Origin: a virus
Taxonomy: Duplodnaviria > Caudoviricetes
Strand: one strand, 5' to 3'
IMG/VR virus record: IMGVR_UViG_3300017739_002784
Location: 1 to 26,157 of that record
DNA: 26,157 nucleotides
The notes under the pieces are model-generated. The model was not told the DNA's origin and searched no databases. It saw nothing but the letters and a program-made list of their open reading frames with translations. Position 1 is the stretch's first letter. The number at the start of each line of letters is the position of its first letter. The translations under genes and the position numbers were made by a program. Of this stretch, positions 453 to 3,004 are shown one piece after another.

Positions 453-950
453 ATGAAAAAAGCATTATTTGCTTTAACTATGTTACTGATGACCACCACT
501 GCAGCAAATGCAGGTGGACTTGTTACTAAACATGCTTCAAGTGTTCAATTAACAGTGGATGCTGCAAGGTCAACTTCTACAAGAATTGGATCTTCATTTA
601 GCATTTCTGGATCTAATATAGATACTACTGATGGTTCTACCGCAGGAACTGTTTCTGCTGGGACTATCACTTCTGGTGTATATTCTCCAGGAACTATCGC
701 AGCAACTCAGGATACTGCAGGTGCAGCGTTTAGTTTTAGTCAGTCATATACTCAAGCTGATACAGTTCCAGCTGCTGCAGTTTCTATAGGTGCTGCTCCT
801 AACTTCTCAAGCGTTACTTCATATGCTGCTGGAGCAAAAGATAGCTTAGCAGGTACTGTAACCTCTGCTGGTATTCTTACGGTGACAGCTGGTGGGGCTG
901 GTACATCTGCTACCGGACAATTCGTGAGCGAGATCACTGTAATTGACTGA
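453..950 (+). CDS. Secreted Thr/Ser/Ala/Gly-rich beta protein, hypothetical
   Basis: Sec signal MKKALFALTMLLMTTTAANA. ATG 453 preferred over TTG 441. Confidence 0.85.
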   Translation: MKKALFALTMLLMTTTAANAGGLVTKHASSVQLTVDAARSTSTRIGSSFSISGSNIDTTDGSTAGTVSAGTITSGVYSPGTIAATQDTAGAAFSFSQSYTQADTVPAAAVSIGAAPNFSSVTSYAAGAKDSLAGTVTSAGILTVTAGGAGTSATGQFVSEITVID

Positions 951-964
951 TAACGGAGGTCGTA

Positions 965-1435
965 ATGACTTTTGGAAAGACGATACTTTGGTCTGTTCTA
1001 AGTGCGGTGGTTGCAAGTGTCATACCTGCAGCTGCCCTGGCGGTCCCCGTGGTCCCGAACTTCACACAGGGATCAATGACAAGCCACACAGAAACAACAT
1101 CGAAGGTGACTGAAACTATTAATTCTATTGATTATAATACAGGATGGCAATACTCAGTAACTGGTACAAACGTGAACAATGGTGGAGCAGCATTAAATCC
1201 ATCAAATGTGACCAACAATGTAATGGTAAATCCACTCGGAGGAATGGAGGGACAGGTTTCAACGACCAACACCTCAGCAAATCTAGGATCAGCGAATTTT
1301 ATAATAACGGATCCGAAAGAGGCATTTCAATTTACTCAAACGTATTCGGGTCCAGGAATGTCAAATCAAACAATTATTCAAAGAGTCACGGAAGTCCAAA
1401 GCGTAACAGATACCACAAGTGTTTTTACGCAATAA
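965..1435 (+). CDS. Secreted Thr/Asn-rich hypothetical protein
   Basis: RBS GGAGG at 955-959, signal peptide ending in ALA, and motif AFQFTQTY resembling AFSFSQSY of the previous gene. Confidence 0.85.
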   Translation: MTFGKTILWSVLSAVVASVIPAAALAVPVVPNFTQGSMTSHTETTSKVTETINSIDYNTGWQYSVTGTNVNNGGAALNPSNVTNNVMVNPLGGMEGQVSTTNTSANLGSANFIITDPKEAFQFTQTYSGPGMSNQTIIQRVTEVQSVTDTTSVFTQ

Positions 1436-2442
1436 TTGCATTGTTGGTTGCATCACCAGTAAGAGCGAACGTGGGTGGTGTATCAGCAACAGCAAACCCC
1501 ATCGCAAATAGTTCCGGCTCAGTGACCAATCAAGCCATTCAGGTTTTACAAGGTCCATATGTAACTAACAGTTATGGTGGTGGAATCTCCTGTCAAGGAC
1601 CAACCGCAAATATAACGCCATTTGTTACTCATAGTAGAAGTTATCAAGATCCTTTTGAAACTTACTACTTAGAACCTCAATATGATGGCAGAGATGTAAA
1701 AGGTCAAAAAGTAGAGATACAGCAACAAGTTAAAAACTATCCCTGGGAAGAATGGTATGACAATAGGGTCAGAACAGATCCTAATGATCCTCTTTATGAT
1801 GTTAATGAAGATGGAATAGCAGATAGATGGTTTGAAGATGGTGCTGATATGACCATCGTTGTTGAAGATATTCAACCAGACGGGATTCCAGATAAACCTG
1901 GAAAAGTTCTCTGGAACAAACCGGTAAGAACAGGACAGCAAGATAATATTAGTACCAATATTGGTCTATCAGCAACCTTGTCTTTTCCACTTGATGGTGG
2001 ATTGCAGGAGCGTTGTAAAGCAGCAGCAGACACTCAAACTGCATTGATGAGACAAACAGTTGCTAATAAAAGATTAGATTTTGAGATTGCTCGTCTTAAG
2101 AATTGTGGAGAATTAATGAAGGCTGGAATTCGCTTTCATAGAAGAAGTCCCTATTATGCAATTTGTGCTGATGTGGTAGTAGAAAATGTAACTACTATTC
2201 CCCAACACAAACACTCTATCCCTTCTTCTTCGGTTCCTTTAAGACAGGCAAACCCCGCTTCTCCCGGTACTGATTCGCAAGCACCTCTTGACGGGACAAT
2301 CTCCGGGGTTTCTTTCCCAATAAGGACTGGACCTTTGTCAGCGCCTTCTTCACAGCCGGTTTCACCACTCTTAACAAAAGATCAGCAAGAGGTTTTGCAA
2401 ATATTGCCGAAGACGTTGCCACAACAGCAATCGAAGCAGTAG
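1144..2442 (+). CDS. Exported Cys-containing hypothetical protein (start uncertain; overlaps the upstream gene in the -1 frame)
   Basis: Long ORF with an internal signal-like segment KRNRYHKCFYAIIALLVASPVRA, acidic DxNxDG-like loops and four Cys in the mature part. Confidence 0.75.
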   Translation: MAILSNWYKREQWWSSIKSIKCDQQCNGKSTRRNGGTGFNDQHLSKSRISEFYNNGSERGISIYSNVFGSRNVKSNNYSKSHGSPKRNRYHKCFYAIIALLVASPVRANVGGVSATANPIANSSGSVTNQAIQVLQGPYVTNSYGGGISCQGPTANITPFVTHSRSYQDPFETYYLEPQYDGRDVKGQKVEIQQQVKNYPWEEWYDNRVRTDPNDPLYDVNEDGIADRWFEDGADMTIVVEDIQPDGIPDKPGKVLWNKPVRTGQQDNISTNIGLSATLSFPLDGGLQERCKAAADTQTALMRQTVANKRLDFEIARLKNCGELMKAGIRFHRRSPYYAICADVVVENVTTIPQHKHSIPSSSVPLRQANPASPGTDSQAPLDGTISGVSFPIRTGPLSAPSSQPVSPLLTKDQQEVLQILPKTLPQQQSKQ

Positions 2443-3004
2443 CAGTCACCGCACCTGCTGATGGAATATTTCCTATGATTTGTGCAGTCACACCAATATC
2501 TTCTGTGACCTGAATACACTCCATACCAACTAATCGATATTCCGTAACTTTCTGATCACCTTTTATAAATCCAACAGGTTCTTTAAGTCCTTGTGCTTCT
2601 GTCGGACAATCAATACCTTGATTTGGTGTTTTAGGAACATCAGGTGTCTTTGCTTCTGGTGGTTTAGGTGCTTCTGGTTGTTCTGGTGATCTTACTGGAG
2701 GAACTTCCTGAGATCTTTTCTCTGTTTCATACTGCAATCTTCTAGCATCATAATTGATTGCATTGAAACTTGGCATCTGACCGTCACAAAATATCTTTAC
2801 CTGATCTGGATCATTGTTGGGTAAATTAGCATTCTTATTACTATCTTCATGCGACTCCACACAGCCAGGCATATTCACAATAGGAAGACCCACCTGTGAT
2901 GTTACAGGTGGGTAAATTGGAACAGCGATTGATGGTTCAATTGCCCACCGTGGAACTGTAGGAACACTTAAATCACGAATATTAATATAAGGTATATCCT
3001 GCAT
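2216..3004 (-). CDS. Pro-rich hypothetical membrane protein with a C-terminal anchor
   Basis: 262-aa ORF with four Cys, a Pro/Glu/Lys linker, hydrophobic ASIAVVATSSAIFA and a basic tail. TAATG-coupled to the upstream ORF. Confidence 0.8.
   Translation of the reverse strand: MQDIPYINIRDLSVPTVPRWAIEPSIAVPIYPPVTSQVGLPIVNMPGCVESHEDSNKNANLPNNDPDQVKIFCDGQMPSFNAINYDARRLQYETEKRSQEVPPVRSPEQPEAPKPPEAKTPDVPKTPNQGIDCPTEAQGLKEPVGFIKGDQKVTEYRLVGMECIQVTEDIGVTAQIIGNIPSAGAVTATASIAVVATSSAIFAKPLADLLLRVVKPAVKKALTKVQSLLGKKPRRLSRQEVLANQYREKRGLPVLKEPKKKG

Follow-up and report, generated by a model that had tools for sequence, protein, structure and literature searches.

Genes read out of frame within other genes are a familiar feature of small phages, the classical cases being the overprinted genes of phiX174, namely B within A, E within D, and K. 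Overlapping reading frames are found also in the Rz/Rz1 spanin pairs of lambda, P2, and T7, which come in embedded and overlapped architectures, while lambda G/GT and dnaX exemplify the use of two frames by programmed -1 frameshifting. A further system to be considered is that of autotransporters and two-partner secretion proteins, in which a conserved motif of approximately 25 residues, the ESPR of Pfam, precedes the signal peptide. Here we analyze a stretch of 26,157 nucleotides (nt) of viral DNA, positions 1 to 26,157 of the IMG/VR record IMGVR_UViG_3300017739_002784 (henceforth the window, meaning this whole stretch), in which two genes of the plus strand share part of their sequence. Gene 2 (965-1435) encodes a protein of 156 residues that belongs to DUF6322 (PF19847, E 1.1e-34) and phrog_650, has a GGAGG Shine-Dalgarno of its own, and shows a signal-peptide-like N-terminus; the open reading frame (ORF) of gene 3 (1144-2442) encodes 432 residues and belongs to phrog_848 (E 6.7e-121). 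The window can be assigned to a T4-like cyanomyovirus because its DNA matches are restricted to cyanophages: All 400 matching records of the phage collection are phages of Synechococcus or Prochlorococcus, or marine phages. The evidence strongly supports, at the level of sequence, a selected dual-coding overlap between the two genes, and we consider it probable (about 0.8) that gene 3 is translated from the ATG at 1144 (GGA|TGG), its reading frame, -1 relative to gene 2, first crossing the final 292 nt of that gene.

How does this locus compare with the systems just mentioned? As in phiX174, a second protein would be read out of frame from an internal start, in an arrangement maintained by selection, and the overprinted segment has an odd composition and is likely disordered. 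The locus differs from phiX174 in that just an N-terminal leader is overprinted, the functional part of gene 3 lying outside gene 2; moreover, the genome is large (170-250 kb in relatives), with no obvious pressure on size, and the start shifts between lineages. With Rz/Rz1 it shares two proteins targeted (here, by prediction) to the envelope, an overlap on the same strand, and an export signal of the second protein that lies within or astride the first gene; the lysis genes of T7 are also located near the tail-fiber and small-terminase region, where the equivalent pair of T7-like cyanophages sits. However, Rz1 is small, occupies the +1 frame, and starts directly with its lipoprotein signal, whereas gene 3 is in the -1 frame and has a long leader followed by a mature part of ~320 residues. 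Nor is there, after the hydrophobic core of gene 3 in the window and the relatives inspected, any lipobox Cys, the mark of the outer-membrane spanin subunit. The resemblance to ESPR consists of an N-terminal extension placed before a classical n-h-c signal peptide, but the leader of gene 3 varies from 5 to 113 residues, is unconserved, and has no Pfam hit (a scan of the full 432-residue ORF returned a sub-threshold DUF6802 hit and nothing else). Finally, lambda G/GT and dnaX have, like our locus, a downstream frame at -1 of the upstream gene with no start codon nearby, but gene 3 lacks a conserved slippery heptamer or stimulatory structure and has a conserved ATG heading its frame.

Stop avoidance follows the proposed start codon

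In the window, the gene-3 frame, which is -1 relative to that of gene 2, is closed by four stops clustered in an AT-rich stretch just upstream of the proposed start (1111-1137, with TGA at 1111, TAA at 1120, TGA at 1129, and TAA at 1135) and then remains open from 1138 to 2442. The ATG at 1144-1146 is composed of the last base of the Gly60 codon, GGA, and the first two bases of the Trp61 codon, TGG. Measured from this ATG to the end of the gene-2 stop (1433-1435), the dual-coding overlap covers 292 nt (1144-1435), with gene 2 in frame 0, gene 3 in frame -1, and no stop in the latter. After 1144, no in-frame ATG, GTG, or TTG is encountered until past the gene-2 stop, the next being TTG at 1441, TTG at 1444, and GTG at 1471. 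A start of this kind in the -1 frame needs TG at the first two positions of a gene-2 codon, that is, Cys or Trp (or a stop), and because mature gene 2 of the window has only one Trp and no Cys, 1144 is the sole possible conventional start upstream of the gene-2 stop. A previous sequence-only reading of this locus, made without database searches, had listed the same four stops with the frame open thereafter, and had considered a true overlapping N-terminal extension of ~95 residues among three possibilities; this is the one that fits the evidence, with the addition that 1144 is itself an ATG and that the overlap spans 292 nt.

Gene 2 has 17 codon junctions in the overlap at which a synonymous codon ending in T would produce a -1 stop (hereafter risky junctions), and T is used in 0/17; the codons found in its place include ACG|GAT, CCG|AAA, GCG|AAT, and ACG|GAA. 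The sequence-only reading had reported these very codons and the same count, which we reproduced exactly, and it had rightly remarked that codons ending in T are common nearby: Their share is 0.27-0.81 per amino acid in the 26 long ORFs of the window. The background density of -1 stops in those ORFs is 768/6007 junctions, or 0.128. The probability of encountering no stop in the 96 junctions of the overlap is 0.0012 under permutation of the codons of gene 2 itself, and 5.5e-6 analytically when the codon usage of the window is applied, with which 0/20,000 samples were free of stops. An open frame arising by chance is ruled out by these statistics taken together with the use of T at risky junctions in the two classes of relatives described below.

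Our T4-like set comprised 85 records, the window plus four GenBank relatives and 80 IMG/VR loci, of which 83 could be analyzed; the remaining two (L026 and L010) were left out, as gene 2 or gene 3 runs off the contig. The IMG/VR loci are the best 80 of roughly 2,200 estimated stretches of T4-like type and, for the podovirus-type set considered later, the best 80 of roughly 2,700. Gene 3 lies in the -1 frame of gene 2 in 83/83 T4-like loci, and in every one the first start of its open frame is an ATG that takes its TG from a gene-2 TGG, giving overlaps of 166-319 nt. A second start between this ATG and the gene-2 stop is present in 4/83 loci only. The distance from the opening of the frame to the ATG has a median of 21 nt (range 6-75), about what is expected from the background density of stops without selection upstream of the ATG.

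Selecting sequences with less than 90% identity in gene-2 DNA produced 54 representatives, which form two classes. In class 1 (n = 29, including the window) the ATG lies at a conserved TGW(Q/E)Y motif; in class 2 (n = 25) either this position is occupied by Tyr or the frame closes beyond it, the ATG being found ~125 nt further downstream, at a different Trp. This difference offers an internal control. Upstream of the first start site, T is present at 82/214 risky junctions in class 1 and 34/174 in class 2; downstream of the second site, it is present at 0/272 and 0/234, respectively. Between the two sites, however, T is present at 0/240 risky junctions in class 1 versus 64/141 in class 2, so that homologous sequence of gene 2 lacks stops only in the lineage that has it downstream of the ATG. 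This comparison directly shows that stop avoidance starts at the ATG and shifts along with it between lineages.

The same is true of the start codon itself. The Gly codon that completes the ATG of class 1 is GGA in 29/29 representatives, whereas class 2 has GGA in 10, GGT in 9, and GGG in 6; the four class-2 representatives that keep Trp at the class-1 site have GGG, GGG, GGT, and GGA. Conversely, the start used in class 2 reads NNA|TGG in 25/25 cases, even if the preceding residue can be Ser, Thr, Gln, or Lys. These codons directly show that the base needed to finish an ATG is invariant only in loci whose open frame begins at that ATG. The start-supplying Trp is likewise invariant within each class (columns 75 and 126 of the gene-2 alignment; codon 61 in the window), while in the class that starts elsewhere the same column has Tyr or varies widely. 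The overlap constrains gene 2 as well.

The gene 2/gene 3 pair is present also in T7-like cyanopodoviruses, in S-SKS1, and in the divergent myovirus S-H38. Gene 3 is likewise at -1 in all 80 T7-like loci, where a TGG codon again supplies the first start (an ATG in 79 loci and a TTG in one); this start lies at position -190 in 74 of the 80. Among named phages, the overlap ranges from 56 to 364 nt, with the first start at a gene-2 Trp codon bar two exceptions. An ATG opens overlaps of 64 nt in S-H38, 67 nt in P-SSP3, 112 nt in SS120-1, 166-172 nt in P-SSM4, Syn1, S-RSM4, S-CAM1, ACG-2014g, and S-SKS1, 193 nt in S-SBP1, S-RIP2, and S-TIP37, and 364 nt in NATL1A-7; P-SSM2 has its ATG at -310 from the gene-2 stop, and P-SSP7, P-GSP1, and P-RSP2 have an overlap of 112 nt starting with a GTG derived from CCG|TGG. 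The exceptions are P-SSP10, in which the first start is a TTG on Cys codons and ATGs are found at -361 and -205, and P-SCSP1m, in which gene 3 occupies the +1 frame from an ATG 56 nt inside gene 2 and has an ordinary N-terminal signal peptide, MTRSTLLALSLLCLSLVSNKARA. As a separate observation, the gene-3 frame of ACG-2014g (L090), followed from the usual ATG, closes at 1394 (1023-1394), and GenBank annotates the downstream piece only (1496-1933); this may reflect a frameshift, a pseudogene, or a sequencing error.

The leader, the signal peptide, and competing readings

The predicted product of gene 3 in the window begins with a leader of 92 residues (1144-1419), rich in Ser, Arg, Asn, and Lys and having a net charge of ~+12. 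Residues 93-108 (CFYAIIALLVASPVRA, 1420-1467) follow, forming a hydrophobic core and likely cleavage region that straddles the gene-2 stop at 1433-1435. The whole pre-sequence, KRNRYHK-CFYAIIALLVASPVRA|N, corresponds to residues 86-109 of the ORF starting at 1144 and, judging from hydropathy and inspection, has the layout of a Sec-type signal, KRNRYHK / CFYAIIALLVASP / VRA|N. That a signal peptide straddles the stop of gene 2, with no in-frame start between 1144 and 1441, had been pointed out by the sequence-only reading and is confirmed here. Over the 54 representatives, the 11-residue hydrophobic core averages 1.45-2.87 on the Kyte-Doolittle scale, and the likely cleavage region, VRA|N in the window, becomes VNA|ET or SYA|ET in relatives. 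The mature protein, whose coding sequence with the stop codon spans 1468-2442, belongs to the Gp165 family (phrog_848) and has VGGVSATANPIANSSG as its conserved N-terminus.

What, then, is the role of the leader? From 5 to 113 residues precede the hydrophobic core among homologs, and in the 54 representatives the leader is again rich in Ser, Arg, Asn, and Lys, with a net charge of +3 to +20 (median +11). We considered whether this basic character had been selected and rejected the possibility, since net charge matches the neutral expectation obtained by exact sampling of synonymous gene-2 sequences without a -1 stop (mean z 0.23, with 28/54 above expectation). In a charge-hydropathy plot, which is a crude test, 54/54 leaders fall on the unfolded side and the mature products of genes 1-3 on the folded side; the leader of the window is likely unfolded and dispensable. 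From these sequence features, the leader is best read as a tolerated by-product, a passenger and not a functional domain: It follows from where a start can exist, because -1-frame starts need a TGN codon in gene 2, and it is variable in length, charged as any stop-free reading of gene 2 would be, and barely constrained in sequence. What selection preserves is uninterrupted reading between a usable start and the signal peptide.

Regarding initiation, the ATG at 1144 has no Shine-Dalgarno, and the sequence around it is AT-rich and weakly structured (-2.6 kcal/mol from -30 to +20); the start of gene 1 is similar, having no Shine-Dalgarno and a value of -2.5 kcal/mol. The mean minimum free energy at the class-1 site is -4.1 kcal/mol where the site is used versus -7.8 kcal/mol at the aligned unused site, and the corresponding values for the class-2 site are -5.5 versus -10.3 kcal/mol; AT content, used versus unused, is 68% versus 61% at the class-1 site and 64% versus 49% at the class-2 site. 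The lower structure and higher AT content of the used site are modest but reciprocal between the classes. Two other candidate signals were rejected. A GGAG lying 10 nt upstream of the ATG might be a Shine-Dalgarno of class 2, but it is not specific, because class 1, which has no start there, has equally strong complementarity (-5.97 vs. -5.58 kcal/mol). A leaderless transcript of gene 3 might arise from a sigma-70-like CTGAAA-17-TATAAT at 1110-1138, which ends 6 nt before the ATG at 1144; the TATAAT of the window derives from the codons GAT TAT AAT (Asp-Tyr-Asn) and is not conserved, relatives having GATTATGCA instead.

The mechanism that we envisage is as follows. Ribosomes would initiate at the ATG of 1144, which is devoid of a Shine-Dalgarno and embedded in AT-rich, weakly structured sequence, and would synthesize a precursor with a basic, unfolded leader of 92 residues followed by a Sec-type signal peptide; cleavage after VRA would then set free the conserved mature protein. 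The internal start may be occluded by ribosomes engaged on gene 2, so that the output of gene 3 would possibly be lower than that of gene 2.

Several points weigh against translation from 1144. The start has no usable Shine-Dalgarno, the only AGG abutting the ATG with an anti-Shine-Dalgarno duplex energy of +0.6, and the contrasts in structure and AT content amount to z values of just +0.8 and +0.4. The signal peptide is not N-terminal, its n-region beginning at residue 86, and a signal peptide located 86-93 residues into a highly basic precursor is unusual, its competence for export being a prediction only. The equivalent signal peptide does stand at the N-terminus, with an ATG just before it, in the distant P-SCSP1m, P-SSP3, and S-H38, an arrangement that formed part of what the sequence-only reading had set against a true overlap; at every locus of the window's class, nevertheless, the overlap is kept. 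In 14/83 loci, including the window with its TTG at 1441 and 1444, starts further downstream may add some initiation. Contigs of relatives assembled from RNA libraries (taken from Logan, with a best word share of 0.27) bridge 1094-1545 and 1375-1543 without indels in four runs, which attests to the continuity of the sequence only and says nothing on transcript ends, strand, expression level, or translation. Furthermore, the loci are related by descent and their counts are not independent events; the independent evidence is that the start has occupied at least seven different positions.

A more ambitious reading of the leader, which we regard as unlikely, would see it as a tunable device: By moving the start among the Trp codons of gene 2, a lineage would set both the occlusion of gene 3 and the length of the basic tail that precedes Sec, thereby timing or dosing an envelope-acting protein late in infection. 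Somewhat more doubtful is that the ATG at 1144 is used and the leader is also functional in its own right, for example as a cytoplasmic basic tail turning the signal peptide into an anchor, or as a means to delay export. In favor of such a function, leaders of 51-113 residues have been kept in most T4-like and many T7-like lineages, and the third positions of gene 2 are enriched in A and depleted in T even at junctions that are not risky; in the middle segment, T is found at 192/823 such junctions in class 1 versus 274/623 in class 2. However, the length is so variable that three lineages have no leader at all, net charge equals the neutral expectation, and there is no leader motif beyond what the conserved C-terminus of gene 2 forces. 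Synonymous divergence gives a divided answer: Among moderately diverged pairs, 4-fold sites of gene 2 in class 2 have a divergence of 0.246 in the overlap versus 0.339 (27% lower), which would suit a functional leader, whereas in class 1 the values are 0.267 versus 0.288, just 7% lower. The sequence-only reading had proposed to look in aligned homologs for a -1 frame that stays open and for suppressed synonymous variation; the frame is open in all loci examined, and the suppression turned out to be weak.

Were gene 3 to start near the signal peptide instead, whether at the TTG codons of 1441 and 1444 or at a non-canonical codon such as ATA 1432 or ATT 1435, perhaps by termination-reinitiation, the upstream frame would be irrelevant. 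The sequence-only reading had contemplated both a non-canonical start and the TTG of 1441. These TTG codons are indeed in frame, the GenBank record of Bellamy begins gene 3 at the equivalent TTG, and the TAAT(T/C) at the gene-2 stop supplies ATT or ATC in frame at all four loci that were inspected. Yet a start at 1435-1444 leaves only M-(A)-L-L-V-A-S-P-V-R-A, in which the charged n-region is missing and the hydrophobic core is cut short; ATG, GTG, or TTG occurs within 20 nt after the gene-2 stop in 14/83 loci only, and neither the total absence of T-ending codons at risky junctions (0/512 in class 1, 0/234 in class 2), which extends to 1144 in the window, nor the fixed A would be explained. 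We deem it very improbable that this is how gene 3 is expressed.

Least probable of all, and hardly to be entertained, is the programmed -1 frameshift that the sequence-only reading had placed near GTT TTT ACG (1421-1429), giving a gene 2-gene 3 fusion in the manner of the tail-chaperone G/GT: Gene 3 does lie in the -1 frame in 83/83 and 80/80 loci, and the T5 run at 1422-1426 of the window could allow re-pairing of tRNA-Phe, but there is no conserved slippery site or RNA structure, given that an X_XXY_YYZ heptamer is missing from the overlap of 46/54 representatives and no such heptamer is common to more than 6, that relatives replace the T run with ATCTTT, GTCTTT, or ATTTTC, that RNAalifold finds 0 conserved pairs around the junction in the 29 class-1 sequences, and that the fold of the window is unexceptional (z -1.62, with 13/200 shuffles as good), while a frameshift would require neither a stop-free zone edged by an ATG nor a fixed A completing that ATG, and P-SCSP1m has its gene 3 in the +1 frame with an ATG of its own.

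Neighboring genes and a second overlap

Genes 2 and 3 are part of a conserved module shared by over 400 sequenced cyanophages, which are of T4-like, T7-like, and S-SKS1-like types. At the very beginning of the window, positions 3-143 of the minus strand encode the N-terminus of psbA. Gene 1 of the module (453-950, plus strand; phrog_564) encodes a protein rich in Ser, Thr, Gly, and Ala with a signal-peptide-like N-terminus, the homologs of which carry the label 'OMP1 protein' in some GenBank records. At 427-434 of the plus strand, 19 nt upstream of the gene-1 ATG, there is a TATAAATA motif that we take to resemble a T4-type late promoter; the window has 2 matches to this motif versus 2.15 expected by chance, and hence the motif alone is not significant. 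In P-SSP7 and other podovirus loci, gene 1 is absent and the gene 2/gene 3 pair comes after two small genes with predicted transmembrane segments, the group sitting between the tail-fiber and small-terminase genes (e.g., 199-1698 of the P-SSP7 record, L096). No PDB sequence was hit in a profile search with gene 3 at E up to 1, and the matches of gene 3 in the ESM Atlas fall in virus-only clusters labeled 'putative Gp165' or hypothetical.

Gene 3 has an overlap also at its other end. Its Pro/Ser-rich 3' tail runs for 227 nt (2216-2442) into a convergent gene of the minus strand (2216-3004; phrog_570, 262 residues), which is a member of the same module. Synonymous permutation of the phrog_570 gene leaves the gene-3 frame open in 0.2% of trials (P 0.002). 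The 3' overlap is longer than zero in 45/46 representatives and shows two modes, ~92-116 nt and ~215-251 nt. P-SSM4 (L086) is peculiar in that the homolog of the convergent gene (T4-GC 234, 1948-2748) is annotated on the same strand as gene 3, from the gene-3 end, unlike other records, in which this homolog is on the opposite strand.

Annotation and evolutionary meaning

Current annotations treat the pair unevenly. GenBank calls the overlap in S-RIM12, S-CAM22, S-CAM1, P-GSP1, and P-SSP3, while gene 2 is dropped from the annotations of S-SM2, NATL1A-7, and P-SSP10, and gene 3 from that of S-RSM4. In P-SSP7, S-SBP1, S-TIP37, SS120-1, P-RSP2, S-H38, Bellamy, P-SSM2, P-SSM4, and Syn1, gene 3 is annotated in truncated form, with loss of its export signal. 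Full-text searches for cyanophage overlapping genes, DUF6322, and gp165 found, among the papers listed, no published description of the gene 2/gene 3 overlap; passages of PMC2816706 deal with T7 and general annotation.

In evolutionary terms, the overlap appears to be a real, selected, and widely conserved gene start, adding one more overprinted phage gene to a kind already known. Its unusual and instructive trait would be a start that is tied to the Trp codons of the gene before it and has shifted from one of these to another, so that a dispensable leader of variable length precedes the signal peptide. Assigning the correct start to gene 3 restores this signal peptide and, with it, the likely cellular location of a core protein of cyanophages. 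The pair also constitutes a natural experiment, in which each move of the start drags the stop-free zone along and obliges gene 2 to carry a Trp and a codon ending in A. Genes 2 and 3 thus illustrate how an overlap can be locked in by the constraint on sequence, and not by the function of the overlapping peptide.

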